64,000 nt of DNA. It comes from Heterodontus francisci (lineage: Eukaryota). Below, piece after piece: positions 498-64,000 of this stretch (the first letter of the stretch is position 1; every line of letters begins with the position of its first letter). The DNA lies in assembly GCF_036365525.1 (NCBI RefSeq), contig NC_090399.1, positions 50,190,430 through 50,254,429 of the forward strand. The letters are read 5' to 3'. Position numbers and translations under genes: made by a program. Under the pieces are notes generated by a model. It was given only the letters and a program-made list of their open reading frames with translations, was not told the origin of the DNA and searched no databases.

Positions 498-498
498 A

Positions 499-518
499 TA
501 CACACACACACACACACA
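499..518. repeat. (CA)n microsatellite
   Basis: About 10 tandem CA units directly after the LINE tail. Confidence 0.9.
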
Positions 519-4500: not shown

Positions 4501-4567
4501 GCACCCACCCTTACTGACAGCCAACTCTCTTACCTTGCAGTATGAGCACCCAACCTTTGATCCAACA

Positions 4568-5446: not shown

Positions 5447-5550
5447 CCGGACAGACTCGTCTGACGCTATTGTCTGGCCCCCCCCCCCCAAGGCTCCATA
5501 CCTGCTGCAAATGCCACACTGAATCCAGCCCATCCACTGGAGTTCCTTAC

Positions 5551-5829
5551 CCCACTGATAGAGTTTGGCCTCTGCCAGGCTGCTGTGATCAATTCGACAG
5601 GAGTATTGATCCTCTTCCCCAGCATTTATTTCAATCTCTTTCTGGATCTGATGAGTCCCATCGTGGTTCGGTCGCACCCCCGAGGATTGGCTCTCAGACA
5701 TTACCTCTCCATTCCTTAGCCAGTTCACCTCAATGTCTACAGGATAAAATCCAGTAACCAGGCAGGAGAGAGTGAGCGGCTTGTACTGACTATTGGGGTC
5801 ACTTCTGGAGATGAACACTTCAGGCTGAA
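5551..5829 (-). CDS. MHC class I heavy chain, alpha3 (C1-set Ig) exon
   Basis: 279-bp phase-1/phase-1 exon with acceptor ttttatcctttcccattacag and donor G|gtaagg. Encodes VQPEVFISRSDPNSQYKPLTLSCLVTGFYPVDIEVNWLRNGEVMSESQSSGVRPNHDGTHQIQKEIEINAGEEDQYSCRIDHSSLAEAKLYQW, with LxCxxxGFYP, the core W, the class I-type RPNxDGTxQ and YxCxxxHxSL. Confidence 0.96.
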
Positions 5830-5952
5830 CTGTAATGGGAAAGGATAAAAACACAAACACAAACAATACACAGACATTGAATGGAACAGGATAATGGATT
5901 CATAGATCAGTGATGTTAGATCAGAACATGGGGTAAAAACTGAAATCAATAC

Positions 5953-6228
5953 CTTTCCTTTCAAAATATTCCTTTCCAGCTCGCAAATATCTCTTTAAAT
6001 AGTCAACAAGGTCGACCTCCAAATTCCATTTCCAATACTTGTTCCAGGATTCATCAGAATTCCATTTCTCCTTGGTCTTCACTGCAAGGTGATTGGTTGT
6101 GACCCATCTCATTCTGTCTGGCTCTAAACTAATATAGTCCTTTCCATCATAACCAAATCGCATCGATATCTTAATGGAGCCTTCATCAGTGATCTCAACA
6201 GTCCTGATCCATTGGAAAGTGTGAATTC
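5953..6228 (-). CDS. MHC class I heavy chain, alpha2 exon (nonclassical; lacks both canonical Cys)
   Basis: 276-bp phase-1/phase-1 exon with acceptor ctgttttgtcactgacag and donor G|gtattg, followed by a 123-bp intron (5830-5952) to alpha3. Encodes GIHTFQWIRTVEITDEGSIKISMRFGYDGKDYISLEPDRMRWVTTNHLAVKTKEKWNSDESWNKYWKWNLEVDLVDYLKRYLRAGKEYFERK, with HTxQ, GYDGxDY, TKxKW and LKRYL motifs. Confidence 0.95.
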
Positions 6229-6344
6229 CTGTCAGTGACAAAACAGGAATCAATAACTAATAGTTAATATCAAATCACAAGCACTCTCATCAGAGAGAAA
6301 TGGGATCTATTACCTGGCAGAAATAGGGGGTGGGGGGTGTGGTT

Positions 6345-6700
6345 ATCGGGTCATTTAGGGCACAGAAAGAGGCCATTTAGCTCACTGAATCCATGCCATC
6401 TGTCCACGGAGCTATGCAGCCAGTCCCACTCCCTGGCACGATTCCCATTGCCCTGCAAGTCTATTTCTCTCAGGTGGCCATCCAACGTCCTCTTGATGTC
6501 ATTTATTGTCTCTGCTTCCACCACCCTGGTCGGCAGTGAGTTCCAGGTCATTACAATCCTCTCCATAAAAAAGTGCTTCCTCATGTTCCTCCTGCATCTT
6601 TCGCCTAAAAAATTTAATCTGTTTTCCCTAGTCCTTGTACCATTTTTTAATGGGAACAGCTTTCAGTTGTCTAATTTATCTAAGCCCATCATAGTTTGTT
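6345..6700 (-). mobile_element. CR1-clade LINE 3' fragment
   Basis: MRKHFFMERIVMTWNSLPTRVVEAETINDIKRTLDGHL, followed by a 3' motif (gagctaaatggcctctttctgtgccc on -). Confidence 0.88.
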
Positions 6701-7650
6701 TCTAAAATTTTCTCAATCTTTTGACTTTGCACGAATCTTCGCAACATTATATGTCTTTTCTTTGAATTTGATACCATCCTTAACTTCTTTAATTAACCAC
6801 GGATGGTTCATCATTCTCAGTAAGTATTTTTTTCTCAATGGAATATATCTTTGTTGAGAATTATGAAATATCTCATTAAATGTCTACCACTGCTTATCTA
6901 CTGTTATACCATTTAATCTATTTTCCAAAGCCACTTTTGTCAACTCTGTCTTCATACCTTTGTAATTGCCTTGATTTAAGTTTCCGACATTAGTTTCAGT
7001 TCCAAGATTTTCACCCACAGACTGAATTTTAAATACTACCATGTTATGATCACTCTTCTCTACAGGATCATTTACTGTGAGATCATTAATTAACCCTGTC
7101 TCATTACACATTCCCACATCCAAAATAGCCTGTTCCCTGGTTGGTTCCACAATGTATTGTTCTCAGGAACTGTCCTGAATATACTCTATGAACTTGTCCT
7201 TGAAGCTACTTTTGCCAATTTGATTTGTCCAATCTATATGAAGATTAAATTCATCCACAATTAATGCAGCACCTTTCTTATAAACCCTCATGACTCCTTG
7301 ATTTATATTCTGTCCTACAATGCAGCTAATGTTAGTGTCTCCCAGCAGTGACTTTTTCACGTGCTACTTCTTATCTCCAACCAAATTGATTCTATATCTT
7401 GATCTTCCAAGCCAAGATCAATTTTCACTACTGCACTGATCTCATCATTTATTAACAAAGCTATCCCAACCCCTGTACTTTTCTGTTTATCCTTCCAAAA
7501 TATCAGGTACCTGTAAATATTCAGTTCCAAGCCTTGGTCACCGTGCAACCATGCCTCTGTAATGGCCATCTGATCAGATGAATTTATTTCTATTTTTGCC
7601 ATCAATTCATCTATCTTGTTATAAATACTGTGCGTATTAACAGATAAATT
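6701..7650 (-). mobile_element. CR1-clade LINE ORF2 APE-endonuclease fragment
   Basis: NTHSIYNKIDEL..AITEAWL..GVGIALLI..IESIWLEI, DEFNLHIDW, EPTREQAILD..DPVEKSDHNMVVF (APE motifs including SDH). Degenerate. Confidence 0.88.
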
Positions 7651-7655
7651 CAGAT

Positions 7656-8071
7656 TCAGATAGAAATGGGGGCTTAAAGTCACAGTATGATCAGAGGGGA
7701 AACAGAATACAGTATCAGAAAGAAATTGCAGGGGTGGGGGGAGGGTGTGGGTGAGTGTTGGTGTTTGTAGTTACAGTATGAACAGCGGGGAACGGGACCA
7801 AGTATCAGATAGAAATGGGGTGGAGGTAGTTGTTGTCACAGCATGAACAGAAGGGAAACAGAATTCAGTATCAGAAAGAAATGGGGGCAGGGGTGGTGGT
7901 TCTAGTCACATTTTGAACAGAGGGGAAAAGGGACCAAGTATCAGATAGAATTTGGGGTTTAGAGTCACAGTCTAATCCGAGGGGGAAAGGTGATCTAATG
8001 CCAGATAGATATCAGGGGGTTAGAGACACAGTCTGGTTAGAGGGGAAAGGGGATCTAGTATCAGATAGAAT
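7656..8071 (+). repeat. Diverged edge copies (~7) of the 58-bp satellite
   Basis: Recognisable tcagatagaaatgggg / gtcacagt / gaggggaaagggg blocks with many substitutions and GT-rich insertions. Confidence 0.9.
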
Positions 8072-8763
8072 CGGAAGAGAGAGAGCTGAAGCGGCTTGAG
8101 AAAGCATCACCAATATGGAGGAGTATAATTCAGGGCTGGGTACAAAATTGCTGAAACTCGCTCAATTAATTCCAAAATTCAATGAGGAAGATGTGGAAGA
8201 GTTTTTCATGTCCTTCAAGAAACTGGCGAGGCAACTACAATGGCCAGCTAAGACCTGGTCTCTTTTACTACAAAGCAAACTAACTGGAAAAGCCCATGAG
8301 GTTTATTCCTTACTGCCAGATGAGAGTTTATCAATTTATGAACTGACCATAAGTGCTATCCTCAGGGCATATGAATTAGAACCCAAAGCCTATCACCAAA
8401 AGTTTGGAACCATCAAAAAGCAAGCTAATCAAACTTATCTGGAGTTTGAAAGAAGCAAGCAGCTTGATTTGACCAATGGCTTTAAAAATAAAGCTCAGCT
8501 ATGAGACTCTCAGAGAAGTAATCCTGTTAGACCAATTTAAAAACTCCCTCCCATTCTCAATAAAAACCCATGTAGAGGAGCAGTGGGTTCAGGGAGCCCG
8601 GCAAGCAGCCGTTCTGGCTGATGAATTGCTTTCATCTACAAGTCCGTTTCCCAGGGGAGAACCTTTCCTAATCACCCCCACAAATCCGAAAAGGACAAAG
8701 GGTGGGAAGTTGAAATCCGCCCAGACAGTCCTGAAAGAGAAAGGAAAGCAAGAGACACAGGGA

Positions 8764-8788
8764 CCCCCCCCCCCCCCCCCCCCCCCCC
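8764..8788. repeat. poly(C) tract (~25 nt)
   Basis: Homopolymer run inside gag. A second C-rich run lies at ~9376-9395. Confidence 0.85.
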
Positions 8789-10732
8789 GCCCACCTCCAG
8801 CCAAAAAGGAAGGTGCTGTGAGCACGAGTGAGACTCGGAGACCTGTGTCCTTCCATTGTAATAAGGCAGGGCATTTAAAAGTTGACTGCTGGAAACTATA
8901 GGGGAAATCGGTAGGGTTAATCAGGGCACACCTGCTCAGTGAAGACGAGGGCCTGATAGAAAACACAGAATGGGCTGTGGCTTTAACTGCAGTGAGGGTG
9001 CAACGCAGGAAGCTTACTACGGCCAGTGCAGGAAAAGTTAATAGGATTACTGAAGGTTATCAGGATTTGTGTTTGAAGGGAAAGTAACCCCACATATTCC
9101 TCAATTGGGACAAGGAAGCCCAGAGTGATTCTCAGGGACATGGGCGACTGGATCCCTTTTACTGGGAAAAGGCCTGATCTTTCCCCCAGAGAGTGCAGTG
9201 AACACCAAAATGGTGGTGAGTGGTCTTGGAGGACAGTGTACCTGTAGACTGAGTGCACTTGGAATGCGACCTGGTTTCGGGTCTGCTGAACGTAGGGATT
9301 ATCCCTAGTTTTCCTGTGGACGGGATTGACCTGTGCCCTAAGATAATGATCTGGCAGGGGTGAAGGTGGTTGCCTCCCCCCCCCCCCCACCCCCCAGTAG
9401 TGAAAGAAAGACCACAGGAGGTCAGAGAGACAGGGCAGTGGCAGGAGACGGACCCCTGCAGTTTCCCTGAATGTGTAGTGGATCAGGCCATGATCAAACC
9501 AGCTCCCCCAGAGGAGACTGAATTAGTACTGCAGGCAGATGACCAGGAGGTCTGTCTGTCCAAGACTTTCTTTGGAAAACTGGGAGACCCTGGGAAAGAA
9601 TTAAATGGATTTTTCCTAGCTGAGGCTCAGCGAGCTGACCCAGTATTGTGAGAGTTAGCACAGGCTGCCCAGTCTGAAAGTGAAGCAGAGGGAGTCCCTG
9701 ATTGCTACTATTTAATGAATGAGGTACTGATGAGGAAATGGAGTTCTCCTCACAGACCTGAGGGCCAGGAGTTGACAGTAGTTCACCAGTTAGTGGTGGC
9801 ACAGAGGTACCGGGGAGAAATATTAAGAAGGGCTCACATGACTACAGTGGTTGTACATGCTGGTTTACAAAAGACCAAAGCTCGCATACGACAGCATTAT
9901 GACTGGCCAAAATTTCAAAGGTGTGGTGGAGTCCTGCAGGAGTTACCACCTGTACCACGTTGAGGGCAATCCCCAACCTACAGTGAAACTTACACCGCTA
10001 TTTCCTGTACCGGTGTTAGGAGGACTCTCCAATAGAGGGCTGGTGAACCGTAAGGGACCCCAGCTAAGAACAAAAGGGGACAGGCAGGCACATGGCCATC
10101 AAAAGTTTAGAAAGAGAAGGGTATAAAATGACCCAGAGGGTAGGTTAAAGGAAGTCCGGGAGGAATCCCAGATGAAAACAATGACTGTCTGGTCAACCAA
10201 CCCTGAAAAATGTGAAATGTTAGACCCCACAACCTCCTATGTAAATGCAGACTCTAGAAGCACCCACCAAAGATGCTAACAGCATTTACAGGAACCTACA
10301 GAAACAAAGAGAGACCTCTAGGGGTCAGAGAAACCATGAGGGTGATGCCTCAACTAGTGAGAATGCAGTTAAGGCTGCACAAATATCTGCAGGTAGCCGT
10401 GTCCAGAGAACAAAGGGGACAGTAACAGAGACTCCTCCCCCACAGTCAGAGGAAAAGGGAACCACCCATCCCCTGAAGACAAAAGTCTTTCCATGAATCA
10501 GGGAGTTCAGGATAGACCAGCCCCCCTACTTACTCTCCTGGGAACAAAGAGACAATCAAAGCAGCCCTGGCACCCAGAACAGCCCATTTTTAATGAGCTT
10601 TAAGATTGGTGAATGAATGGAAATGAATGAGAGAGATGCATGAGCTTTTTTCTGTATTGTATATTTCTCTCAAACTCTGTAAAGAAATGCACAACTTTCC
10701 TTCAAATCACATTTCATTTCCGGGTGAGGACA

Positions 10733-11521
10733 TATCGGACAAACCACCACCTGCCAAGACTGAGGCACGCATTATTTCGCCACATGAACATTAAACCTTA
10801 AAAATGCAAGCCCCTGACTGGAAAGACATTTTGCATAGTAACAGACGGTGTTGAAACAATGGGGATGCAGTAGTTCTTCCCCAATACACAGAAGTGGTCA
10901 GACCAGTTTCAGTCAGATGACTAACTGGCTGTTGCTGAGAATTTGAACTTCCTACAAAGGATTTGAACTGAGACAAAGCCATGTGCTCATGGAGTGAAGA
11001 TCTCTCCTGAAACTGAAGCAAGAATACCTCTCTCCTACCTGCTTCCATCTCCGTCCCATGCAAATGAATCTTGAGAAAACAGGTGAAACACAAAAAGAGA
11101 AAGCTTTTCAATGTTAACAAGCTTTTAAGAAGACTACTGGGCCCCAACAAAAAGCAAGACGACTTACAAAAGGAATACAAGATATTGCCTCAAACTGTTC
11201 CATCTGAGCTTTTCTTCTTCTTGTTTTCTGTTCCTATCTGCATGTGTATATCGCGTGTGCATGCTGGCATAGGTGTGTCGGACATCCATCAGGTGTGAAC
11301 AGTATTAGAGTTTAAGTTTAAAAAACATTTAATCTTTCTTCTTTAAAACAGAGAAATCCTGCATGAATTGGTTTCTTTGTCCTATAATTGGGAAAACAGT
11401 GAACAAGGATTCAGAAAAAGGGGACTCAAAACACATCGCATTTATAATTAAACCCTGTTAAAGTAAGATCAGGTGAAGATAGAAACAGATCCTGACACAA
11501 CATTTGCACCGGGTCGCAACA
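10733..11521 (+). mobile_element. Probable 3' LTR (~790 bp)
   Basis: Preceded by a short purine-rich stretch (gggtgagga). Begins tatcggac (degenerate TGTC..) and ends ccgggtcgcaaCA exactly where the satellite resumes. There is no second copy in the window to confirm it. Confidence 0.6.
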
Positions 11522-14500
11522 ATGGGAAAGGGGATCCAGTATCAGATAGAAATGGGAGTAAAAGTCACAGTCTGATCAGAGGGGAAAGGGGATCCAGTAT
11601 CAGATAGAAATGGGAGTTTAAGTCACATTCTGATCAGAGGGGAAAACGGATCCTGTATCAGATAGAAATGGGGGTTAGAGTCACAGACAGATCAGAGGGG
11701 AAAAAGGATCCCGTATCAGATAGAAATGGGGGTCAGAGTCACAGTCTGATTAGAGGAGAAAGGGGATTGAGTATCAGATAGAAATGGGGGGTTCAAGTCA
11801 CAGTCCGATCGGAGGAGAAAGGGGTATCCAGTATCAGATAGAAATGGGGGGTGGGTGGGTGTGGATAGAGTCACAGTGTGATAGAGGGGAAAGGGGATCC
11901 TGTATCAGATAGAAATGGGGGTTAGAGTCACAGTCCGATCAGAGGGGAAAGGGGATCCAGTATCAGATAGAAATGGGGGGTTCAAGTCACAGTCCGATCG
12001 GAGGAGAAAGGGGTATCCAGTATCAGATAGAAATGGGGGGGGGGGGGGTGTGGATAGAGTCACAGTCTGATAGAGGGGAAAGGGGATCCTGTATCAGATA
12101 GAAATGGGGGTTAGAGTCACAGTCCGATCAGAGGGGAAAGGGGATCCAGTATCAGATAGAAATGGGGGGTTCAAGTCACAGTCCGATCGGAGGAGAAAGG
12201 GGTATCCAGTATCAGATAGAAATGGGGGGGGGGGGTGGATAGAGTCACAGTCTGATAGAGGGGAAAGGGGATCCTGTATCAGATAAAAATGGGGGTTAGA
12301 GTCACAGTCCGATCAGAGGGGAAAGGGGATCCAGTATCAGATAGAAATGGGGGTTAGAGTCACAGTCCGATTAAAGGGGAAAGGGGATCCAGTATCAGAT
12401 AGAAATGGGGGTTAGATTCACAGTCTGATCAGAGTGGAAAGGGGATGTAGTATCAGATAGAAATGGGGGTTAGAGTCACAGACAGATCAGAGGGGAAAAA
12501 GGATCCCGTATCAGATAGAAATGGGGGTCAGAGTCACAGTCTGATCAGAGGAGAAAGGGGATCTAGTATAGATAGAAATGGGGGTTAGAGACACAGTCTG
12601 ACCAGAGGGGAAAGGGGATCCTGTATCAGATAGCAATGGGGGTTAGAGTCACAGTCTGATCAGAGGGGAAAGTGGATCCAGTATCAGATAGAAATGGGGG
12701 GTTAGAGTCACAGTCTGATCAGGGGGGAAAGGGGATCCAGTATCAGATAGAAATGGGGGTCAGAGTCACAGTCTGATCAGAGGGGAAAGGGGATCCAGTA
12801 TCAGATAGAAATGGGGGTTTGAGTCACAGTCTGATCAGAGGAGAAAGGGGATTGAGTATCAGATAGAAATGGGGGGTTCAAGTCACAGTCCGATCGGAGG
12901 AGAAAGGGGTATCCAGTATCAGATAGAAATGGGGGGGGGGGGTGTGGATAGAGTCACAGTGTGATAGAGGGGAAAGGGGATCCTGTATCAGATAGAAATG
13001 GGGGTTAGAGTCACAGTCCGATCAGAGGGGAAAGGGGATCCAGTATCAGATAGAAATGGGGGGTTCAAGTCACAGTCCGATCAGAGGAGAAAGGGGTATC
13101 CAGTATCAGATAGAAATGGCGGGGGGGGGGGGGTGTGTATAGAGTCACAGTCTGATGGAGGGGAAAGGGGATCCTGTATCAGATAGAAATGGGGGTTAGA
13201 GTCACAGTCCGATCAGAGGGGAAAGGGGATCCAGTATCAGATAGAAATGGGGGGTTCAAGTCACAGTCCGATCGGAGGAGAAAGGGGTATCCAGTATCAG
13301 ATAGAAATGGGGGGGGGGGTGGATAGAGTCACAGGCTGATAGAGGGGAAAGGGGATCCTGTATCAGATAGAAATGGGGGTTAGAGTCACAGTCTGATGAG
13401 AGGGGAAAAAGGATCCTGTGTCAGATAAAAATGGGGTTAGAGTCACAGTCCGATCAGAGGGGAAAGGGGATCCAGTATCAGATAGAAATGGGGGTTAGAG
13501 TCACAGTCCGATTAAAGGGGAAAGGGGATCCAGTATCAGATAGAAATGGGGGTTAGATTCACAGTCTGATCAGAGTGGAAAGGGGATGTAGTATCAGATA
13601 GAAATGGGGGTTAGAGTCACAGACAGATCAGAGGGGAAAAAGGATCCCGTATCAGATAGAAATGGGGGTCAGAGTCACAGTCTGATCAGAGGAGAAAGGG
13701 GATCTAGTATAGATAGAAATGGGGGTTAGAGACACAGTCTGACCAGAGGGGAAAGGGGATCCTGTATCAGATAGCAATGGGGGTTAGAGTCACAGTCTGA
13801 TCAGAGGGGAAAGGGGATCCAGTATCAGATAGAAATGGGGGGTTAGAGTCACAGTCTGATCAGGGGGGAAAGGGGATCCAGTATCAGATAGAAATGGGGG
13901 TTAGAGACACAGTCTGACCAGAGGGGAAAGGGGATCCTGTATCAGATAGCAATGGGGGTTAGAGTCACAGTCTGATCAGAGGGGAAAGGGGATCCAGTAT
14001 CAGATAGAAATGGGGGTTAGAGTCACAGTCTGATCAGAGGGGAAAGGGGATCCTGTATCAGAAAGCAATGGGGGTTAGAGTCACAGTCTGATCAGAGGGG
14101 AAAGGGGATCCAGTATCAGATAGAAATGGGGGGTTAGAGTCACAGTCTGATCAGGGGGGAAAGGGGATCCAGTATCAGATAGAAATGGGGGGTTAGAGTC
14201 ACAGTCTGATCAGGGGGGAAAGGGGATCCAGTATCAGATAGAAATGGGGGTTAGAGTCACAATCTGATAAGAGGATAAAGGGGATCCTGTATCAGCTAGA
14301 AATGGGGGTTAGAGTCAAGGTCTGATCGGAGGGGAAAGGGGATCCTGTATCAGATAGAAATGGGGGTTAGAGTCACAATCTGATCAGAGGGGAAAGGGGG
14401 TCCTGTATCAGACAGAAATGGGGCTAAGAGTCACAGTCTGATCAGGGGGGAAGGGGGATCCTGTATCAGATAGAAATGGGGGTTAGAGTCACAATCTGAT

Positions 14501-17500
14501 CAGAGGGGAAAGGGGGTCCTGTATCAGACAGAAATGGGGCTAAGAGTCACAGTCTGATCAAGGGGGAAAGGGGATCCTGTATCAGATAGAAATGGGGGTT
14601 AGAGTCACAGAATGATCAGGGGGGAAACGGGATCCTGTATAGGATAGAAATGGGGGGTTGGAGTCAGAGTGTGATCAGGGGGGAAAGGGGATCCAGTATC
14701 AGATAGAAATGGGGGGTTGGAGTCACAGTCTGATCAGAGGGGAAAGGGGATCCAGTATCAGATAGAAATGGGGGTGAGAGTCACAGTCTGATCAGAGGGG
14801 AAAGGGGATCCTGTATCAGATAGCAATGGGGGTTAGAGTCACAGTCTGATCAGAGGGGAAAGGGGATCCAGTATCAGATAGAAATGGGGGGTTAGAGTCA
14901 CAGTCTGATCAGGGGGGAAAGGGGATCCAGTATCAGATAGAAATGGGGGTTAGAGTCACAATCTGATCAGAGGATAAAGGGGATCCTGTATCAGCTAGAA
15001 ATGGGGGTTAGTGTCACAGTCCAATCAGAGGGGAAAGGGGATCCAGTAGCAGATAGAAATGGGGAGTTGGAGTCACAGTCCGATTAGGGGGGAAAGGGGA
15101 TCCAGTAGCAGATAGAAATGGGGGGTTAGAGTCACAGTCTGATCAGGGGGGAAAGGGGATCCAGTAGCAGATGGAAATGGGGGGTTGGAGTCACATTCTG
15201 ATCAGAGGGGAAAGGGGATCCTGTATCAGATAGAAATGGGGGTTCGAGTCACAGTCTGATCAGAGGGGAAAGGGGATCCAGTATCAGATAGAAATGGGGG
15301 GTTGGAGTCACAGAATGATGAGGAGGGAAAGGGGATCCAGTATCAGATAGAAATGGGGGTTACAGTCACAGACTGATCAAAGGGGAAAGGGGATCCTGTA
15401 TCAGATAGAAATGGGGGTTAGAGTCACAGTCTGATCAGAGGGGAAAGGGGATCCAGTATCAGATAGAAATGGGGGTTAGTGTCACAGTCCAATCAGAGGG
15501 GAAAGGGGATCCAGTATCAGATAGAAATGGGGGGTTGGAGTCACAGTCCGATCAGGCGGGAAAGGGGATCCAGTATCAGATAGAAATGGGGGGTTGGAGT
15601 CACAGTCTGATCAGAGGGGAAAGGGGATCCAGTATCGGATAGAAATGGGGGGTTAGAGTCACCGTCTGATCAGAGGGGAAAGGGGATCCTGGACCAGATA
15701 GCAATGGGGGGGGGGGGGGTTCGATTCACAGTCTGATCAGAGGGGAAAGGGGATCCAGTATCAGATAGAAATGGGGTTAAAGTCACAGTCTGATCAGAGG
15801 GGAAAGGGGATCGAGTATCAGACAGAAATGGGGGTTCGAGTCACAGTCTGATCAGAGGGGAAAAAGGATCCTGTATCAGATAGAAATGGGGGTTCGAGTC
15901 ACAGTCTGATCAGAGGGGAAAAAGGATCCTGTATCAGATAGAAATGGGAGTTAAAGTCACAGTCTGATCAGTGGGGAAAGGGGATCCAGTATCAGATAGA
16001 AATGGGGGTTAGAGTCACAGTCTGATCAGAGGGGAAAGGGGATCCAGTATCAGATAGAAATGGGGGTTAGAGTCACAGTCTGATCAGAGGGGAAAGGGGA
16101 TCCTGTATCAGATAGAAATGGGGGTTAGAGTCACAGTCTGATCAGAGGGGAAAGGGGATCCAGTATCAGATAGAAATGGGGGTTAGTGTCACAGTCCAAT
16201 CAGAGGGGAAAGGGGATCCTGTATCAGATAGAAATGGGGGTTAGAGTCACAGTCTGATCAGAGGGGAAAGGGGATCCAGTATCAGATAGAAATGGGGGTT
16301 AGTGTCACAGTCCAATCAGAGGGGAAAGGGGATCCAGTATCAGATAGAAATGGGGGGTTGGAGTCACAGTCCGATCAGGCGGGAAAGGGGATCCAGTATC
16401 AGATAGAAATGGAGGGTTAGAATCACAGAATGATCAGAGGGGAAAGGGGATCCAGTATCAGATAGAAATGGGGGGTTGGAGTCACAGTCTGATCAGAGGG
16501 GAAAGGGGATCCAGTATCAGATAGAAATGGGGGGTTGGAGTCACAGTCTGATCAGAGGGGAAAGGGGATCCAGTATGAGATAGAAATGGGGGTTAGTGTC
16601 ACAGTCCAATCAGAGGGGAAAGGGGATCCAGTATCAGATAGAAATGGGGGGTTAGAGTCACCGTCTGATCAGAGGGGAAAGGGGATCCTGGACCAGATAG
16701 CAATGGGGGGGGGGGGTTCGATTCACAGTCTGATCAGAGGGGAAAGGGGATCCAGTATCAGATAGAAATGGGGTTAAAGTCACAGTCTGATCAGAGGGGA
16801 AAGGGGATCGAGTATCAGACAGAAATGGGGGTTCGAGTCACAGTCTGATCAGAGGGGAAAAAGGATCCTGTATCAGATAGAAATGGGGGTTAGAGTCACA
16901 GTCTGATCAGAGGGGAAAGGGGATCCAGTATCAGATAGAAATGGGGGTGAGAGTCACAGTCTGATCAGAGGGGAAAGGGGATCCTGTATCAGATAGAAAT
17001 GGGGGTTGGAGTCACAGAATGATCAGGGGGGAAAGGGGATCTAGTATAGATAGAAATGGGGGTTAGAGTCACAGTCTGATCAGAGGGGAAAGGGGATCCT
17101 GTATCAGATAGAAATGGGGGGTTAGAGTCACAGTCTGATCAGAGGGGAAAGGGGATCCAGTATCAGATAGAAATGGGGGTTAGTGTCACAGTCCGATCAG
17201 AGGGGAAAGGGGATCCAGTATCAGATAGAAATGGGGGGTTGGAGTCACAGTCCGATCAGGGGGGAAAGGGGATCCAGTAGCAGATAGAAATGGGGGGTTA
17301 GAGTCACAGTCTGATCAGGGGGGAAAGGGGATCCTGTATCAGATAGAAATGGGGGTTACAGTCACAGTCTGATCAGAGGGGAAAGGGGATCCAGTATCAG
17401 ATAGAAATGGGGGTTACAGTCACAGTCTGATCAAAGGGGAAAGGGGAAACTTTATCAGATAGAAATGGGGGTTAGAGTCACAGAATGATCAGAGGGGAAA

Positions 17501-53500: not shown

Positions 53501-56500
53501 TCTGATCAGAGGGGATAGGGGATCCTGTATCAGATAGAAATGGGGGTTAGAGTCACAGTCTGATCAGAGGGGAAAGGGGATCCAGTATCAGATAGAAATG
53601 GGGGTTAGAGTCACAGTCTGATCAGAGGGGAAAGGGGATCCAGTATCAGATAGAAATGGGGGGTTAGAGTCACAGAATGATCAGAGGGGAAATGGGATCC
53701 TGTATCAGATAGAAATGGGGGTTAGAGTCACAGTCTGATCAGAGGGGCGAGGGGATCCAGTATCAGATAGAAATGGGGGTTCGAGTCACAGTCTGATCAG
53801 AGGGGAAAGGGGATCTGGTATCAGATAGAAATGGGGATTAGAGTCACAGTCTGATCAGAGGGGAAAGGGGATCTGGTATCAGGTAGAAATGGGGGTTCGT
53901 GTCACAGTCCGATCAGAGGTGAAATGGGATCAAGTATCAGATAGAAATGGGGGGGTTAGTGTCACAGTCCGATCAGAGGGGAAATGGGATCCAGTATCAG
54001 ATAGAAATGGGGGGGTTCGTGTCACAATCTGATCAGAGGGGAAAGGGGATCCAGTATCAGATAGAAATGGATGTTAGGGTCACAGTCCGATGAGAGGGGA
54101 AAGGGGGTCCAGTATCAGATAGAAATGGGGATTCGAGTCACAGTCTGTTCAGAGGGGAAAGGGGATCAAGTATCACATAGAAATCGGGGTTTCAAGTCAC
54201 AGTCTGCTCAGAGGGGAAAGGGGATCCAGTATCAGATAGAAATGGGGGGTTAGAGTCACAGTCTGATCAGAGGGGAAATGGGATCCTGTATCAGATAGAA
54301 ATGGGGGTTCGTGTCACAGTCTGATCAGAGGGGAAAGGGGATCTGGTATCAGATAGAAATGGGGATTAGAGTCACAGTCTGATCAGAGGGGAAAGAGGAT
54401 CTGGTATCAGGTAGAAATTGGGGTTCGTGTCACAGTCCGATCAGAGGGGAAATGGGATCTGGTATCAGGTAGAAATGGGGGTTCGTGTCACAGTCTGAAC
54501 AGAGGGGAAAGGGGTTCCAGTTTCAGATAGAAATGGGGGTTCGAGTCACAGTTTGATCAGAGGGGAAAGGGGATCCAGTATCAGATAGAAATGGGGGGTT
54601 GGAGTCACAGTCCGATCAGGGGGGAAAGGGGATCCAGTAGCAGATAGAAATGGGGATTAGAGTCACAGTCTGATCAGAGGGGAAAGAGGATCTGGTATCA
54701 GGTAGAAATTGGGGTTCGTGTCACAGTCCGATCAGAGGGGAAAGGAGATCCTGTACCAGATAGAAATGGGGGTTAGAGTCACAGTGGGATCAGGGGGGAA
54801 AGGGGATCCAGTATCAGATAGAAATGGGGGGTTGGAGTCACAGTCTGATCAGAGGGGAAAGGGGATCCAGTATCAGATAGAAATGGGGGGTTGGAGTCAC
54901 AGTCCGATCAGGGGGGAAAGGGGATCCAGTATCAGATAGAAATGGGGGTTAGAGTCACAGACTGATCAGGGGGGAAAGGGGATCCTGTATCAGATAGAAA
55001 TGGGGGTTAGAGTCACAGTCTGATCAGAGGGAAAAGGGGATCCAGTATCAGATAGAAATGGGGGGTTAGAGTCACAGTCTGATCAGGGGGGAAAGGGGAT
55101 CCAGTAGCAGATAGAAATGGGGGTTAGAGTCACAGACTGATCAGAGGGGAAAGGGGATCCAGTATCAGATAGAAATGGGGGGTTAGAGTCACAGTCTGAT
55201 CAGGGGGGAAAGGGGATCCTCTATCAGATAGAAATGGGGGTTAGAGTCACAGTCTGATCAGAGGGGAAAGGGGATCCTGTATCAGATAGAAATGGGGGTT
55301 AGAGTCACAGTCTGATCAGAGGGGAAAGGGGATACTTTATCAGATAGAAATGGGGGGTTGGAATCACAGAATGATCAGAGGGGAAAGGGGTCCAGTTTCA
55401 GATAGAAATGGGGTGTTGGAGTCACAGTCTGATCAGAGGGGAAAGGGGATCTAGTATGAGATAGAAATGGGGGTTCGAGACACAATCTGATCAGAGGGGA
55501 AAAAAGATCCCGTATCAGATAGAAATGGGGGTTAGAGTCACAGTCTGATCAGGGGGGAAAGGGGTTCCTGTTTCGGATAGAAATAGGGGTTAGAGTCACA
55601 GTCCGATCAGACGGGAAAGGGGATCCAGTATCAGATAGAAATGGGGGTTAAAGTCACAGTCTGATCAGGGGGGAAACGGGATCCAGTATCCAATAGAAAT
55701 GGGGGTTAGAGTCACAGTCTGATCAGAGGGGAAAGGGGATCCAGTATCAGATAGAAATGTGGGTTAAAGTCACAGTCTGATCAGAGGGGAGAGGGGATCC
55801 AGTATCAGATAGAAATGGGGGTTCGAGTCACAGTCTGATCAGAGGGGAAAGGGGATCTGGTATCAGATAGAAATGGGGATTAGAGTCACAGTCTGATCAG
55901 AGGGGAAAGGGGATCTGGTATCAGGTAGAAATGGGGGTTCGTGTCACAGTCCGATCAGAGGTGAAATGGGATCCAGTATCAGATAGAAATGGGGGGGTTA
56001 GTGTCACAGTCCGATCAGAGGGGAAATGGGATCCAGTATCAGATAGAAATGGGGGGGTTCGTGTCACAATCTGATCAGAGGGGAAAGGGGATCCAGTATC
56101 AGATAGAAATGGATGTTAGGGTCACAGTCCGATGAGAGGGGAAAGGGGGTCCAGTATCAGATAGAAATGGGGATTCGAGTCACAGTCTGTTCAGAGGGGA
56201 AAGGGGATCAAGTATCACATAGAAATCGGGGTTTCAAGTCACAGTCTGCTCAGAGGGGAAAGGGGATCCAGTATCAGATAGAAATGGGGGGTTAGAGTCA
56301 CAGTCTGATCAGAGGGGAAATGGGATCCTGTATCAGATAGAAATGGGGGTTAGAGTCACAGTCTGATCAGAGGGGAAAGGGGATCCAGTATCAGATAGAA
56401 ATGGGGGTTAGAGTCACAGTCTGATCAGAGGGGAAAGGGGATCTGGTATCAGGTAGAAATGGGGGTTCGTGTCACAGTCCGATCAGAGGGGAAATGGGAT

Positions 56501-59500
56501 CTGGTATCAGGTAGAAATGGGGGTTCGTGTCACAGTCTGATCAGAGGGGAAAGGGGATCTGGTATCAGATAGAAATGGGGATTAGAGTCACAGTCTGATC
56601 AGAGGGGAAAGAGGATCTGGTATCAGGTAGAAATTGGGGTTCGTGTCACAGTCCGATCAGAGGGGAAATGGGATCTGGTATCAGGTAGAAATGGGGGTTC
56701 GTGTCACAGTCTGAACAGAGGGGAAAGGGGTTCCAGTTTCAGATAGAAATGGGGGTTCGAGTCACAGTCTGATCAGAGGGGAAAGGGGATCCAGTATCAG
56801 ATAGAAATGGGGGGTTGGAGTCACAGTCCGATCAGGGGGGAAAGGGGATCCAGTAGCAGATAGAAATGGGGATTAGAGTCACAGTCTGAACAGAGGGGAA
56901 AGAGGATCTGGTATCAGGTAGAAATTGGGGTTCGTGTCACAGTCCGATCAGAGGGGAAAGGAGATCCTGTATCAGATAGAAATGGGGGTTAGAGTCACAG
57001 TGGGATCAGGGGGGAAAGGGGATCCGGTATCAGATAGAAATGGGGGGTTGGAGTCACAGTCTGATCAGAGGGGAAAGGGGATCCAGTATCAGATAGAAAT
57101 GGGGGGTTGGAGTCACAGTCCGATCAGGGGGGAAAGGGGATCCAGTAGCAGATAGAAATGGGGGTTAGAGTCACAGTCTGATCAGAGGGGAAAGGGGATC
57201 TGGTATCAGGTAGAAATGGGGGTTCGTGTCACAGTCCGATCAGAGGGGAAATGGGATCTGGTATCAGGTAGAAATGGGGGTTCGTGTCACAGTCTGATCA
57301 GAGGGGAAAGAGGATCTGGTATCAGGTAGAAATTGGGGTTCGTGTCACAGTCCGATCAGAGGGGAAATGGGATCTGGTATCAGGTAGAAATGGGGGTTCG
57401 TGTCACAGTCTGAACAGAGGGGAAAGGGGTTCCAGTTTCAGATAGAAATGGGGGTTCGAGTCACAGTCTGATCAGAGGGGAAAGGGGATCCAGTATCAGA
57501 TAGAAATGGGGGGTTGGAGTCACAGTCCGATCAGGGGGGAAAGGGGATCCAGTAGCAGATAGAAATGGGGATTAGAGTCACAGTCTGATCAGAGGGGAAA
57601 GAGGATCTGGTATCAGGTAGAAATTGGGGTTCGTGTCACAGTCCGATCAGAGGGGAAAGGAGATCCTGTATCAGATAGAAATGGGGGTTAGAGTCACAGT
57701 GGGATCAGGGGGGAAAGGGGATCCAGTATCAGATAGAAATGGGGGGTTGGAGTCACAGTCTGATCAGAGGGGAAAGGGGATCCAGTATCAGATAGAAATG
57801 GGGGGTTGGAGTCACAGTCCGATCAGGGGGGAAAGGGGATCCAGTAGCAGATAGAAATGGGGGGTAGAGTCACAGTCTGATCAGCGGGGAAAGGGGATCC
57901 TGTATCAGATAGAAATGGGGGTTAGAGTCACAGTATGATCAGAGGGGAAAGGGGATCCAGTATCAGATAGAAATGGGGGTTAGAGTCACAGTCTGATCAG
58001 AGGGGAAAGGGGATCCTGTATCAGATAGAAATGGGGGTTAGAGTCACAGAATGATCAGGGGGGAACGGGGATCCAGTATCAGATAGAAATGGGGGTTACA
58101 GTCACAGTCTGATCAAAGGGGAAAGGGGATACTTTATCAGATAGAAATGGGGGTTAGAGTCACAGTCTGATCAGAGGGGAAAGGGGATCCATATCAGATA
58201 GAAATGGGGGGTTGGAGTCACAGTCCGATCAGGGGGGAAAGGGGATCCAGTATCAGATAGAAATGGGGGTTAGAGTCACAGACTGATCAGAGGGGAAAGG
58301 GGATCCAGTATCAGATAGAAATGGGGGGTTAGAGTCACAGTCTGATCAGGGGGGAAAGGGGATCCTGTATCAGATAGAAATGGGGGTGAGAGTCACAGTC
58401 TGATCAGAGGGGAAAGGGGATCCTGTATCAGATAGAAATGGGGGTTAGAGTCACAGTCTGATCAGAGGGGAAAGGGGCTCCTGTATCAGATAGAAATGGG
58501 GGTTAGAGTCACAGTCTGATCAGAGGGGAAAGGGGATACTTTATCAGATAGAAATGGGGGGTTGGAATCACAGAATGATCAGAGGGGAAAGGGGTCCAGT
58601 TTCAGATAGAAATGGGGTGTTGGAGTCACAGTCTGATCAGAGGGGAAAGGGGATCTAGTATGAGATAGAAATGGGGGTTCGAGACACAATCTGATCAGAG
58701 GGGAAAAAAGATCCCGTATCAGATAGAAATGGGGGTTAGAGTCACAGTCTGATCAGGGGGGAAAGGGGTTCCTGTTTCGGATAGAAATGGGGGTTAGAGT
58801 CACAGTCTGATCAGAGGGGAAAGGGGATCCAGTATCAGATAGAAATGGGGGTTAAAGTCACAGTCTGATCAGGGGGGAAACGGGATCCAGTATCCGATAG
58901 AAATGGGGGTTAGAGTCACAGTCTGATCAGAGGGGAAATGGGATCCAGTATCAGATAGAAATGTGGGTTAAAGTCACAGTCTGATCAGAGGGGAGAGGGG
59001 ATCCAGTATCAGATAGAAATGGGGGTTCGAGTCACAGTCTGATCAGAGGGGAAAGGGGATCTGGTATCAGATAGAAATGGGGATTAGAGTCACAGTCTGA
59101 TCAGAGGGGAAAGGGGATCTGGTATCAGGTAGAAATGGGGGTTCGTGTCACAGTCCGATCAGAGGTGAAATGGGATCAAGTATCAGATAGAAATGGGGGG
59201 GTTAGTGTCACAGTCCGATCAGAGGGGAAATGGGATCCAGTATCAGATAGAAATGGGGGGGTTAGTGTCACAATCTGATCAGAGGGGAAAGGGGATCCAG
59301 TATCAGATAGAAATGGATGTTCGGGTCACAGTCCGATGAGAGGGGAAAGGGGGTCCAGTATCAGATAGAAATGGGGATTCGAGTCACAGTCTGTTCAGAG
59401 GGGAAAGGGGATCAAGTATCACATAGAAATCGGGGGTTTGAGTCACAGTCTGCTCAGAGGGGAAAGGGGATTGAGTATCAGATAGAAAATGAGGGTTAGA

Positions 59501-62500
59501 GTCACAGTCCGATCAGAGGGGAAATCGGATTGAGTATTAGATAGAAATGGGGGGTTAGAGTCAAAGTCTGATCAGAGGGGAAAGGGGATCCAGTATCAGG
59601 TAGAAATGGGTGGTTAGAGTCAAAGTCTGATCAGAGGGGAAAGGGGATCGAGTATCAGATTGAAATGGGGGTTAGAGTCGCCGTCCGATCAGAAGGGAAA
59701 GGGGATCCAGTATCAGGTAGAAATGGGTGGTTAGAGTCAAAGTCTGATCAGAGGGGAAAGGGGATCCAGTATCAGATAGAAATGGGGGTTAGAGTCACAG
59801 ACTGATCAGAGGGGAAAGGAGATCCAGTATCAGATAGAAATGGGGGTTAGTGTCACAGTCTGATGAGAACGGAAAGGGGATCGAGTATCAGATAGAAATG
59901 GGGGTTGGAGTCACAGTCTGATCAGAGGGGAAAGGGGACTGAGTATCAGATAGAAATGGGGGGTTAGAGTCACAGTCTGATCAGAGGGGAAAGGGGATCC
60001 AGTATCAGATAGAAATGGGGGTTAGAGTCACAGACTGATGAGAGGGGAAAGGGGACTGAGTATCAGATAGAAATGGGGGGTTAGAGTCACAGTCTGATCA
60101 GAGGGGAAATGGCATCCAGTGTCAGATAGAAATGGGGGTCAGAGTCACAGTCTGATCAGAAGGGAAAGGGGATCCAGTATCAGATAGAAATGGAGGTTAG
60201 AGTCACAGTCTGATCAGAGGGGAAAGGGCATCTGGTATCAGATAGAAATGGGGGTGACAGTCACAGTCTGATCAGAGGGGAAAGGGGATCTGGTATCTGA
60301 TAGAAATGGGGGTTCGTGTCACAGTCCGATCAGAGGGGAAAGGGGAAACAGTATCAGATAGAAATTGGGGTTAGAGTCACAGTCTGAACAGAGGGGAAAG
60401 TGGATCCAGTATCAGATAGAAATGGGGGTTAGAGTCACAATCTGATCAGAGGGGAAAGGGGATCAAGTATGACATAGAAATCGGGGTTTCGAGTCACAGT
60501 CTGATCAGAGGGGATAGGGGATCCAGTATCAGATCGAAATGGGGGGTTAGAGTCACAATCTGATCAGAGGGGAAAGGGGATCAAGTATCACATAGAAATC
60601 GGGGTTTCAAGTCACAGTCTGATCAGAGGGGAAAGGGGATCCGGTATCAGACAGAAATGGGGGTCAGTGTCAAAGTCTGATGAGAACGGAAAGGTGATCG
60701 AGTATCAGATAGAAATGGGGGTTAGAGTCACAGACTGATCAGAGGGGAAAGGAGATCCAGTATCAGATAGAAATGGGGGTTAGTGTCACAGTCTGATGAG
60801 AACGGAAAGGGGATCGAGTTTCAGATAGACATGGGGGTTAGAGTCACAGTCTGATCAGAGGGGAAAGGGGATCAAGTATCCGATAGAAATGGGGGGGTCA
60901 GAGTCACAGTCTGATTAGAGGGGAAAGGGGATCCAGTATCAGATAGAAATGGGGGTTAGAGTCACAGACTGATCAGAGGGGAAAGGGGATCCAGTATCAG
61001 ATAGAAATGGGGGTTAGAGTCACAGACTGATCAGAGGGGAAAGGAGATCCAGTATCAGATAGAAATGGGGGTTAGAGTTACAGTCTGATGAGAACGGAAA
61101 GGGGATCGAGTATCAGATAGAAATGGGGGGGTCAGAGTCAGTCTGATTAGAGGGGAAAGGGGATCCAGTATCAGATAGACATGGGGGTTAGAGTCACAGT
61201 CTGATCAGAGGGGAAAGGGGATCAAGTATCCGATAGAAATGGGGGGGGGGGTCAGAGTCACAGTCTGATTAGAGGGGAAAGGGGATCCAGTATCAGATAG
61301 ACATGGGGGTTAGAGTCACAGTCTGATCAGAGTGGAAAGGGGAAACAGTATCAGATAGAAATTGGGGTTAGAGTCACAGTCTGAACAGAGGGGAAAGTGG
61401 ATCCTGTATCAGATAGAAATTGGGGTTAGAGTCACAGTCTGAACAGAGGGGAAAGTGGATCCAGTATCAGATAGAAATGGGGGTTAGAGTCACAATCTGA
61501 TCAGAGGGGAAAGGGGATCAAGTATCACATAGAAATCGGGGTTTCAAGTCACAGTCTGATCAGAGGGGAAATGGGATCCTGTATCAGATAGAAATGGGGG
61601 TTAGAGTCACAGTCTGATCAGAGGGGAAAGGGGATCCAGTATCAGATAGAAATGGGGGTTAGAGTCACAGTCTGATCAGAGGGGAAAGGGGATCTGGTAT
61701 CAGGTAGAAATGGGGGTTCGTGTCACAGTCCGATCAGAGGGGAAATGGGATCTGGTATCAGGTAGAAATGGGGGTTCGTGTCACAGTCTGATCAGAGGGG
61801 AAAGAGGATCTGGTATCAGATAGAAATGGGGATTAGAGTCACAGTCTGATCAGAGGGGAAAGAGGATCTGGTATCAGGTAGAAATTGGGGTTCGTGTCAC
61901 AGTCCGATCAGAGGGGAAATGGGATCTGGTATCAGGTAGAAATGGGGGTTCGTGTCACAGTCTGAACAGAGGGGAAAGGGGTTCCAGTTTCAGATAGAAA
62001 TGGGGGTTCGAGTCACAGTCTGATCAGAGGGTAAAGGGGATCTGGTATCTGATAGAAATGGGGGTTCGTGTCACAGTCCGATCAGAGGGGAAAGGGGAAA
62101 CAGTATCAGATAGAAATTGGGGTTAGAGTCACAGTCTGCTCAGAGGGGAAAGGGGATTGAGTATCAGATAGAAAAGGGGGGTTAGAGTCACAGTCCGCTC
62201 AGAGGGGAAATGGGATTGAGTATCTGATAGAAATGGGGGGTTAGAGTCACAGTCTGATCAGAGGGGAAAGGGGATCCAGTATCAGGTAGAAATGGGTGGT
62301 TCGAGTCAAAGTCTGATCAGAGGGGAAAGGGGATCCAGTATCAGATAGAAATGGGGGTTCGAGTCACAGTCTGATCAGAGGGGAAAGGGGATCCAGTATC
62401 AGATAGAAATGGGGGTTAGAGTCACAGTCTGATCAGAGGGGAAAGGGGACCAACTATCAGATAGAAATTGGGGTTAGAGTCACAGTCTGATCAGAGGGGA

Positions 62501-64000
62501 AAGGGGATCCAGTATCAGATAGAAATGGGGGGTTAGAGTCACAGTCTGATCAGAGGGGAAAGGGGACCAACTATCAGATAGAAATGGGGGTTAGAGTCAC
62601 AGTCCGATCAGAGGGGAAAGGGGATCCGGTATCAGACAGAAATGGGGGTCAGTGTCAAAGTCTGATGAGAACGGAAAGGGGATCGAGTATCAGATAGAAA
62701 TGGGTGTCAGAATCACAGTCTGATCAGAGGGGAAAGGGGATCGAGTATCAGATAGAAATGGGGGGTTAGAGTCACAGTCTGATCAGAGGGGAAAGGGGAC
62801 CAACTATCAGATAGAAATGGGGGTTAGAGTCACAGTCCGATCAGAGGGGAAAGGGGATCCGGTATCAGACAGAAATGGGGGTCAGTGTCAAAGTCTGATG
62901 AGAACGGAAAGGTGATCGAGTATCAGATAGAAATGGGGGTTAGAGTCACAGACTGATCAGAGGGGAAAGGAGATCCAGTATCAGATAGAAATGGGGGTTA
63001 GTGTCACAGTCTGATGAGAACGGAAAGGGGATCGAGTATCAGATAGACATGGGGGTTAGAGTCACAGTCTGATCAGAGGGGAAAGGGGATCAAGTATCCG
63101 ATAGAAATGGGGGGGTCAGAGTCACAGTCTGATTAGAGGGGAAAGGGGATCCAGTATCAGATAGAAATGGGGGTTAGAGTCACAGACTGATCAGAGGGGA
63201 AAGGGGATCCAGTATCAGATAGAAATGGGGGTTAGAGTCACAGACTGATCAGAGGGGAAAGGAGATCCAGTATCAGATAGAAATGGGGGTTAGTGTCACA
63301 GTCTGATGAGAACGGAAAGGGGATCGAGTATCAGATAGAAATGGGGGGGTCAGAGTCACAGTCTGATTAGAGGGGAAAGGGGATCCAGTATCAGATAGAC
63401 ATGGGGGTTAGAGTCACAGTCTGATCAGAGGGGAAAGGGGATCAAGTATCCGATAGAAATGGGGGGGGGGCGGGTCAGAGTCACAGTCTGATTAGAGGGG
63501 AAAGGGGATCCAGTATCAGATAGACATGGGGGTTAGAGTCACAGTCTGATCAGAGTGGAAAGGGGATCAAGTATCCGATAGAAATGGGGGGTTAGAGTCA
63601 CAGTCTGATCAGAGGGGAAAGGGGATCCAGTATCAGATAGAAATGGGGGGTTAGTGTCACAGTCTGATCAGAGGGGAAAGGGGATCCAGTATCAGATAGA
63701 AATGGGGGTTAGAGTCACCGTCTGATCAGAGGGGAAAGGGGATCCAGTATCAGATAGAAATGGGGGGTTAGTGTCACAGTCTGATCAGAGGGGAAAGGGG
63801 ATCCACTATCAGATAGAAATGGGGGGTTAGAGTCACAGTCTGATCTGAGGGGAAAGGGGATCCAGTTTCGGATAGAAATGGGGGTTCGTGTCACAGTCCG
63901 ATCAGATGCAAAAGGGGTTCCAGTTTCAGATAGAAATGGGGGTTAGAGTCACAGTCTGATCAGAGGGGAAAGGGGATCGAGTATCAGATAGAAATGGGGG
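11522..64000 (+). repeat. 58-bp tandem satellite array, >52 kb, ~900 monomers, open at the right edge
   Basis: Consensus GATCAGAGGGGAAAGGGGATCCAGTATCAGATAGAAATGGGGGTTAGAGTCACAGTCT (58 nt; 57-59 nt with G-run slippage). Head-to-tail, one orientation, no interruptions seen. Confidence 0.99.

Follow-up and report, generated by a model that had tools for sequence, protein, structure and literature searches.

A horn shark nonclassical MHC class I gene with a satellite-filled intron probably longer than 57 kb

The class I exons near one end of the stretch of Heterodontus francisci (horn shark) DNA analysed here, 64,000 nt in all and referred to as the window, most likely belong to an intact, expressed nonclassical MHC class I gene (probability roughly 0.78), whose leader and alpha1 exons would lie beyond position 64000 and whose transmembrane (TM) exon would lie before position 1, giving an intron 2 of more than 57.7 kb. 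The original prediction had offered two readings of the missing alpha1 exon, an intact gene with a satellite-filled intron of more than 57 kb or a gene decapitated at a satellite boundary. Two RefSeq models tied to the locus (P0003, XP_067865853, and P0067, XP_067865852) and an alpha1-alpha2 join in RNA-type contigs support the former; the latter is disfavoured by the intact exons, by the presence of alpha1 in the RefSeq models and by the same join. Alpha1 itself and the distal limit of the array would lie outside the window, and the intron size is a lower bound. The features are laid out as follows.

4534..4645, minus strand: cassette exon, 112 nt, AG/GT ends, used by RefSeq isoform X2 (P0003); antisense to a CR1-like LINE
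5551..5829, minus strand: alpha3 (C1-set) exon, 279 nt, a separate phase-1 exon
5830..5952, minus strand: alpha2-alpha3 intron, 123 nt, removed in contigs of run X5 (joint 5829/5953, CT..AC)
5953..6228, minus strand: MHC class I alpha2 exon, 276 nt, AG/GT ends, phase 1; residues 106-196 of P0003/P0067
6229..64000, minus strand: 3' part of the putative alpha1-alpha2 intron, at least 57,772 nt; its 5' end would lie beyond the window
6229..6351, plus strand: two degenerate 58-mer units adjoining the alpha2 acceptor, the final one, a candidate unit, in register with the acceptor AG
6352..7645, minus strand: CR1-like LINE fragment (endonuclease part and 3' end) in gene orientation, splitting the degenerate satellite
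7648..8073, plus strand: about seven degenerate 58-mer units
8074..11523, plus strand: Gypsy-like retrotransposon fragment, 5'-truncated and broken, inserted in the array edge
11524..64000, plus strand: homogeneous 58-bp tandem array of about 900 units, with recent kb-scale block duplications

As had been predicted, the gene lies on the minus strand, where alpha2 (Pfam MHC_I, E = 2e-16) and alpha3 (C1-set, E = 1e-17) each occupy their own phase-1 exon, the arrangement of a class I heavy chain, and the intron between them measures 123 bp, as stated. Neither canonical cysteine is present in alpha2. No leader, alpha1 or TM exon was found in the 64-kb window: tblastn with 71 family proteins located class I exons only at 5500-6300 and at the cassette exon, matched over 4533-4646, the remaining 11 window matches having E values of 0.04-0.97. 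For an HMM built from 53 alpha1 sequences, the top score in the window was -3.2 bits, versus -2.5 on a reversed decoy (alpha2 control, 169.5 bits). These searches bear out the earlier statement that 6229-64000 holds no alpha1-like exon and rule out an alpha1, leader or TM exon hidden within the window.

P0003 and P0067 contain the alpha2 and alpha3 sequences without a single difference; both models include a leader and alpha1, and the second also includes a TM. Among the stored proteins, the start of the window's alpha2 is carried by these two only. The RefSeq isoform model can be tied to the window locus because isoform X2 uses the cassette exon found here, at which the tail of P0003 is encoded (38 of 38 amino acids identical by tblastn). 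This exon is predicted to shift the frame and to bring in a stop ahead of the TM segment; the contig joints listed include no cassette-exon junction. Among the annotated proteins compared (four matches of six candidates), no other carries the alpha1 of P0067 at 100% identity. Gene models from tandem clusters may nevertheless be chimeras, and nested and multi-unit models occur in other sharks.

The proposed check for a transcript joining alpha1 to alpha2 yielded a direct join to this alpha2 acceptor in the RNA-type contigs of runs X5 and X6, which, together with the DNA run X1, derive from one sample; the RNA label of these runs is a guess, none being listed on record as RNA. One X5 contig has a 37-nt loose end at 6229, of which the 30 letters shown encode, by hand translation, the alpha1 C-terminus of P0067 with zero inserted bases, and record 24 of X6 matches all 108 nt of 6122-6229 exactly and overhangs by 37 nt. 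Unlike these, X1 runs unbroken across 5917-6432. The junction is seen in one contig per run, and the alpha1 portion joined to alpha2 comprises the last ~10 codons only. Because the alpha1-end peptide of the junction contig is identical in the paralog P0071, 37 nt cannot identify which alpha1 exon was used.

The claim that 6229-64000 consists of short intron sequence, CR1, Gypsy and satellite stands as to the overall layout, but the piece at 6229-6351 that had passed for unique itself contains degenerate satellite (unit at about 6270-6345, nhmmer E = 4.3e-6, matched by 0 of 1000 shuffles). The LINE at 6352..7645 was recognised by its translation, its match to the other LINE copy and its high repeat depth, and the pieces are presumably CR1, a family label based on motifs. 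Pfam recovered SCAN (E = 8e-7) and Integrase_H2C2 (E = 7e-8) in the Gypsy-like fragment and no match for the LINE or Harbinger-like pieces in the window; Rfam had no matches on 1-14000. The main array makes up 52,477 of the 57,772 nt (91%), so that, provided alpha1 lies beyond the window, intron 2 is both long and repeat-rich. TRF counted 890 copies at 12055-64000, with further copies from 11524, in agreement with the predicted single tandem array of some 900 or more repeats. Its orientation is uniform (662 anchors on plus, 0 on minus), no non-satellite stretch of at least 25 nt occurs within 11524-64000, and there are 306 distinct monomers. The array is G-rich on the plus strand and 68% pyrimidine on the sense strand of the gene, with 0 strict G-quadruplex motifs. 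A coding role was rejected, no relatives being present among 570 candidates; the two phmmer matches are unrelated repeat proteins, one from a bacterium and one from an insect. The satellite had 0 matches in metagenome contigs, a source uninformative for sharks.

An intact gene of this shape could have arisen from an old minisatellite at the 3' end of intron 2 that was broken up by the LINE and Gypsy-like insertions, the part distal to them then growing by kb-scale block duplications through unequal exchange. The polymerase would be able to read through the array because AATAAA occurs 0 times on the sense strand; the antisense strand lacks AATAAA too, so its lack is no evidence of selection. 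The spliceosome would pass over the acceptor-like motifs of the array, most likely because alpha2 is recognised by exon definition. In a repeat-rich MHC, such an expansion most likely represents bulk that is tolerated, not an adapted device. Introns of such a size would fit the spans of other shark genes, 5 of 18 MHC-Ib models in the white shark and 6 of 17 in the catshark extending over more than 57,772 nt.

As to its relatives, the sequence of the gene fits a nonclassical, UEA/UCA-like multigene class I family of sharks. UEA is the sister lineage to dogfish UCA, which is not known outside dogfishes, and a UEA gene would be expected in the UDA/UEA cluster adjoining brd2 and b2m; the paper that defined UEA reportedly described it as multigene and present in sharks, not in rays or chimaeras. 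UEA is described as multicopy and MHC-linked, and no description of its intron structure was found in the literature searched. Family matches to the window gene comprise 66 proteins from 13 shark species and no ray or chimaera in a word-seeded search of limited reach; at least six of the genes are in the horn shark, whose paralog models all share a source-sequence length of 74.47 Mb. A two-cysteine alpha2 occurs in 0 of 53 family members. Of the nine peptide-terminus anchor positions that we take, with the alpha2 disulfide, to mark class Ia, the alignment keeps Y123, T143, K146, W147 and Y171, and changes Y59 to H, Y159 to N and position 84 to a residue other than Y or R, with Y7 replaced by L by eye; the gene thus has neither the full anchor set nor the alpha2 disulfide of classical class Ia (UAA). 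Its alpha2 is similar to the UEA/UCA clade, sharing 66 of 92 residues, counted by eye, with the nurse shark query 'UCA NODE_26056' (PMC10751288 supplement). The window gene and UEA are alike in being multicopy and shark-only, for the former among the matches found; the reference compared was labelled UCA, none being labelled UEA.

The history of the two groove halves was approached through P0067, whose alpha1 is nearest to P0071 (75% versus 45-47% to P0007/P0069) and whose alpha2 is nearest to P0007 (82% versus 71%). The max-chi method places a breakpoint in columns 83-95, a range that includes the alpha1/alpha2 boundary at 87 (p = 1.5e-4). Of 15 cross-species triplets, which are not independent, 13 reached p < 0.05 in Fisher tests, whereas for the control P0071 only 3 of 15 did. 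Three AU tests of this gene did not reject congruent placements (p = 0.44, 0.24 and 0.06), and a Mustelus pair shows a strong alpha1/alpha2 conflict (AU p = 1.5e-5) in a group named after seeing the trees. The suggestion that alpha1 was shuffled against alpha2 among paralogs is partly supported, by the mosaic in the triplet tests, which the three AU tests do not confirm. On balance, the gene somewhat more probably than otherwise originated earlier, when two paralog sublineages exchanged sequence in or close to intron 2; that the satellite drove this exchange is doubtful. Likewise unlikely is an adapted shuffling platform, in which many paralogs would share the 58-mer in their intron 2 and the repeat would actively promote alpha1/alpha2 exchange. 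The split affinities of P0067, the boundary-spanning breakpoint and the Mustelus conflict are what such a platform would draw on, but P0067 diverges by 18-25% of amino acids from its nearest relatives and the mosaic looks old, whereas the bulk of the array, with a mean of 3.9 edits per 58 nt and blocks 99-100% identical, looks young, though homogenisation can reset the clock. Moreover, one of four triplets places the breakpoint at 55-57, and chimeric gene models would mimic shuffling in other species.

An assembly artefact, in which the gene is intact but assembly has lengthened the array or bridged a gap within it, leaving a true intron that is much shorter or of unknown size, is improbable. 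Near-identical blocks are where assemblers err: duplicates recur at lags of 2267, 3031 and 8336 nt, with 1,847 nt exact at lag 3031 and 99-100% identity over ~4.5 kb. Most of the array, however, is non-identical (35,882 of 52,278 200-mers distinct) and contains no Ns, unique insertions alternate with repeat units at its proximal edge, and the array junction appears real because this edge is graded, passing from degenerate units to LINE, degenerate units, Gypsy and array. Least probable of all is a decapitated copy, an alpha2-alpha3 unit that lost alpha1, with the RNA coming from another haplotype or an identical duplicate and the annotation bridging the array: alpha1-less paralog models do exist (e.g. 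horn shark P0070/P0043, P0056 and P0063) and the alpha1 position is out of view, but neither exon is damaged and their splice sites are canonical, the alpha2 start is confined to P0003/P0067 among stored proteins, a colinear model requires alpha1 upstream on the same sequence, and the DNA contig that covers alpha2 shows no branching and has a depth of 3.6 versus 3.5-3.6 in the flanks, a low depth and weak evidence.

For the intact gene, the apparent arrival of degenerate satellite units in register at the alpha2 acceptor raises a new point, namely that the 58-mer may derive from a 3' splice-site region by amplification and supply about 800 decoy acceptors. Pyrimidines at least equal to those of the real acceptor accompany 815 of the 931 YAG sites of the array, and 766 also have a branch-like motif. 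The in-register score of the last unit, 27, was attained in 40 and 51 of 5000 shuffles (p ~ 0.01) and by 3 of 203 other YAG-ending 57-mers, so that homology between the last unit, with its acceptor, and the satellite is only suggestive. It is a rather long shot that the 58-mer is the amplified 3' splice-site region of intron 2 and that the gene is transcribed through ~800 decoy acceptors with clean splicing to the last. Were it so, the gene would be a natural test of how the spliceosome settles on a single 3' site when hundreds of decoys lie upstream, and if all paralogs inherited the unit in the same place and orientation, it would form a homology block beside alpha2, recombining groove halves across the shark UEA family. 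Recursive splicing was ruled out by the absence of AG|GT ratchet points from the visible intron (0 AG|GT on the array sense strand, 0 AG|GTRAG in the rest). An array devoid of donor sites is not supported either: a rough tally gives 639 GT sites that agree with the consensus at six of nine positions, equal to the true donors of alpha2 and alpha3, and 26 sites that agree at seven.

Partial precedents are known for this architecture. Classical class I genes of teleosts have a long intron 2 (more than 10 kb in trout UBA; also zebrafish and medaka) and frog class I undergoes exon shuffling, such a long repeat-rich intron having already been published as an alpha1/alpha2 recombination site that yields new alpha1-with-alpha2 combinations (PMC6523485, PMC3684511). 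The shark gene differs in being nonclassical, with an intron above 57 kb that is 91% one tandem unit, and any exchange would involve paralogs, not alleles. The Drosophila Y genes kl-3 and kl-5 likewise transcribe long intronic satellite arrays (PMC6508621, PMC11207136), but with megabase introns and a testis-specific programme, as against tens of kb (a lower bound), a 58-bp unit and an immune gene here. In the human F7 intron 7 37-bp VNTR, the terminal unit is the true splice site and is followed by silent pseudo-sites (PMC1557585); F7 reiterates a 5' site, whereas the shark array would reiterate a 3' site (branch-like motif, pyrimidine tract and CAG) in ~800 copies upstream of the true acceptor. 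The horn shark gene would thus extend the long-intron-2, domain-shuffling layout of fish and frogs to nonclassical genes, within a family of the oldest lineage that has an MHC, in an extreme form whose filler is a single satellite rather than mixed repeats. Such arrays may also explain split, headless or fused class Ib gene models in sharks.

The original prediction of minus-strand class I alpha2 and alpha3 exons parted by a 123-bp intron, with short intron sequence, CR1, Gypsy or satellite from 6229 to 64000, is borne out by the exon ends, by Pfam and by a single 58-bp array starting at 11524. The window contains 0 Ns, and its features are as follows.

Features of the class I locus (window coordinates)
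4534-4645, minus strand: cassette exon of isoform X2, 112 nt, AG/GT-bounded, antisense to a LINE
5551-5829, minus strand: alpha3 exon, AG/GT ends, Pfam C1-set
between 5829 and 5953, minus strand: alpha2-alpha3 intron, 123 nt, between AG/GT exon ends
5953-6228, minus strand: class I alpha2 exon, AG/GT ends, Pfam MHC_I
6229-6351: two degenerate 58-mer units directly at alpha2
6352-7645, minus strand (the gene's orientation): CR1-like fragment
7648-8073: about seven degenerate 58-mer units
8074-11523: truncated Gypsy-like fragment
11524-64000: homogeneous 58-bp array in one orientation

The predicted lack of alpha1 within the window also holds. Searches by tblastn with 71 family proteins matched only alpha2, alpha3 and the cassette exon, with no alpha1, leader or TM exon in the window, which scored no higher than a reversed decoy against profile HMMs for these three; the alpha2 profile, as the positive control, reached 169.5 bits. 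The TM exon is also absent from 1-5550, so the alpha3-TM intron exceeds 5.5 kb. In this interval, a decayed segment near 970-2700 is Harbinger-like, and two plus-strand pieces, at about 2700-3720 and at about 4560-5430, are CR1-like; all three are labelled by their motifs and have no Pfam match.

As a query, the alpha2 exon matched 66 proteins among 87 candidates (13 shark species), and none of the 66 came from a ray or chimaera. The cluster identical to it comprises the Heterodontus francisci models XP_067865852 (P0067) and XP_067865853 (P0003), which come from a 74.47-Mb sequence. Each model includes an exact match to the alpha2 and alpha3 of the window as well as a leader and alpha1, and P0067 includes a TM segment. 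Judged by its sequence, the gene is nonclassical, because both alpha2 cysteines are absent, a pair missing in 53/53 family members examined, and P0067 keeps only 5/9 of the positions that we take to be the classical anchors. UCA proper is known only from dogfishes, so UEA is the probable name of the gene's lineage. UEA is described in PMC10751288 and PMC12562908 as the multicopy shark lineage; alpha2 shares 66/92 residues, counted by eye, with a nurse shark query labelled UCA (PMC10751288 supplement).

That the gene is intact, with a giant intron 2, has in our estimate a probability of nearly four in five. The C-terminal 38 residues of isoform X2 (P0003) are encoded at 4533-4646 (tblastn), which links the RefSeq model with this locus or else with an exact copy of it; a colinear model would have to draw its alpha1 from past 64000, provided that the window belongs to the annotated assembly. 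Four sequencing runs among 24 listed were compared over 4450-7620; X5, X6 and X1 are one sample, and the RNA status of X5 and X6 is a tool's guess supported by their joints. Contigs of X5 have exactly the 123-nt intron spliced out, and one carries a 37-nt loose end at 6229; translated by hand, 30 nt of it give the alpha1 C-terminus of P0067, joined without extra bases. X6 provides a 145-nt contig with a 37-nt overhang and 108 nt identical to 6122-6229, across which paralogs diverge by 2-10 residues. The DNA run X1 is unbroken across the alpha2 acceptor (5917-6432, 0 differences), and X7, from a second organism, covers alpha2 with 8 differences. The alpha1-alpha2 junction in the one X5 contig and the locus-tied models with alpha1 thus favour an intact gene over a decapitated copy, although the alpha1 end at this junction is also identical in the horn shark paralog P0071.

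The cassette exon is LINE-derived, and the three residues after it match out-of-frame entry into the TM exon; its isoform would either encode a protein without a TM segment or be marked for decay. Among relatives, a horn shark paralog (P0070/P0043, XP_067865855-859) has five models, all beginning inside alpha2, and appears as an alpha1-less family member, and an epaulette shark isoform model (P0061, XP_060706328.1; its sister isoform P0074 has 349 aa) joins the leader directly to alpha2, skipping alpha1. Models from three shark species (P0001, P0002, P0004) with two or more tandem class I units are probably fused neighbour genes; therefore, gene models in the class Ib cluster can be chimeric.

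One of the two degenerate units next to alpha2, at about 6270-6345, matches the satellite significantly (nhmmer E 4.3e-6; 0/1000 shuffles; 0/342 control pieces), and the 58-bp repeat appears to be an old resident of intron 2, later broken by insertions. Such an interrupted repeat speaks against a misjoin on the proximal side of the array. No interruption of at least 25 nt occurs within 11524-64000. Of its 894 monomers, 306 are distinct, and the mean distance from the consensus is 3.9 edits. Blocks of the array have recently been duplicated, with lags of ~2.3, 3.0 and 8.3 kb, a trace such as unequal exchange would be expected to leave. The youngest expansion of the array lies at 44500-52000, where a block of 3031 nt (52 monomers) is repeated about 2.5 times almost unchanged, and this is the likeliest array site for assembly error or length polymorphism. 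The LTR-like end of the Gypsy-like fragment (about 10700-11523, plus strand) faces the array in the orientation opposite to that of the class I gene and could be a source of antisense transcripts of the satellite.

Read in the sense direction, each monomer runs from a branch-like motif through a pyrimidine tract to CAG. In the array, 815/931 YAG sites have at least 12/16 pyrimidines, the value for the true alpha2 acceptor being 12, and 766 of these 815 have YTRAY upstream. Over its final 57 nt the intron can be aligned to the monomer in register, the real AG opposite the monomer AG. The alignment scores 27, a value that 5000 shuffles reached 40 and 51 times and that 3/203 other YAG-ending pieces reached as well, and is at most suggestive of homology. 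The final few intron codons are nearly the same in white shark and bamboo shark read-through gene models, which points to an acceptor region older than the array, with acceptor to satellite as the likelier direction. The observed alpha1-alpha2 junction has no array-derived insert, and exon definition is the mechanism that we favour for the choice of the true acceptor. Canonical recursive splicing is ruled out for the visible part of intron 2 by the absence of AG|GT from the array and of AG|GTRAG from the rest of that part. A depletion of donor sites in the array was not borne out by a crude count.

The horn shark gene is a real, extreme case of a known layout. PMC6523485 describes a long intron 2 serving alpha1/alpha2 recombination in trout (>10 kb), zebrafish and medaka, PMC3684511 infers the same for frogs, and PMC1513397 puts nurse shark MHC genes at 3-5x mammalian size; two bioRxiv papers report elongated introns and tandem-repeat-rich regions in elasmobranchs generally. 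MHC-Ib models spanning >57,772 nt number 5/18 in white shark and 6/17 in catshark, as whole-gene spans, some nested and possibly chimeric. Introns filled with satellite are known from Drosophila (PMC6508621, PMC11207136), and a VNTR reiterating a splice site from human F7 (PMC1557585). In the literature searched, a set without the main J Immunol papers, no shark class I gene was described as having an intron 2 filled with satellite.

For the proposed shuffling of alpha1 against alpha2, 53 of 71 proteins were compared; those left out were redundant isoforms (5), models with several class I units (3) and proteins whose domains were incomplete (10). P0067 is sister to P0071 in the alpha1 tree (support 96/82), and in the alpha2 tree P0071 falls in a cross-species clade without P0067. 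In the triplet with P0071 and P0007, another family member, 30/34 informative alpha1 sites favour P0071 and 19/28 informative alpha2 sites favour P0007, with the best breakpoint at columns 83-95, across the alpha1/alpha2 boundary at 87 (permutation p 1.5e-4); other partners place it at 92-95, 91-95 and 55-57. Among horn shark triplets, 4/30 reach p<0.001, every one with P0067 and P0071, and across species, in triplets that are not independent, 13/15 with P0067 and 3/15 with the control P0071 have Fisher p<0.05. AU tests did not reject congruent placement of P0067 (p 0.44, 0.24, 0.06); a mosaic origin of the gene is likely. Most of the array seems to postdate the mosaic, which makes the array's present size an improbable cause. 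Alpha3 identity among horn shark paralogs (91-99%) is consistent with homogenisation. In Mustelus asterias, P0038 and P0009 are sisters in alpha2 and strongly apart in alpha1 (AU p 1.5e-5), and several Mustelus breakpoints lie at columns 87-92, reflecting either true shuffling or chimeric models.
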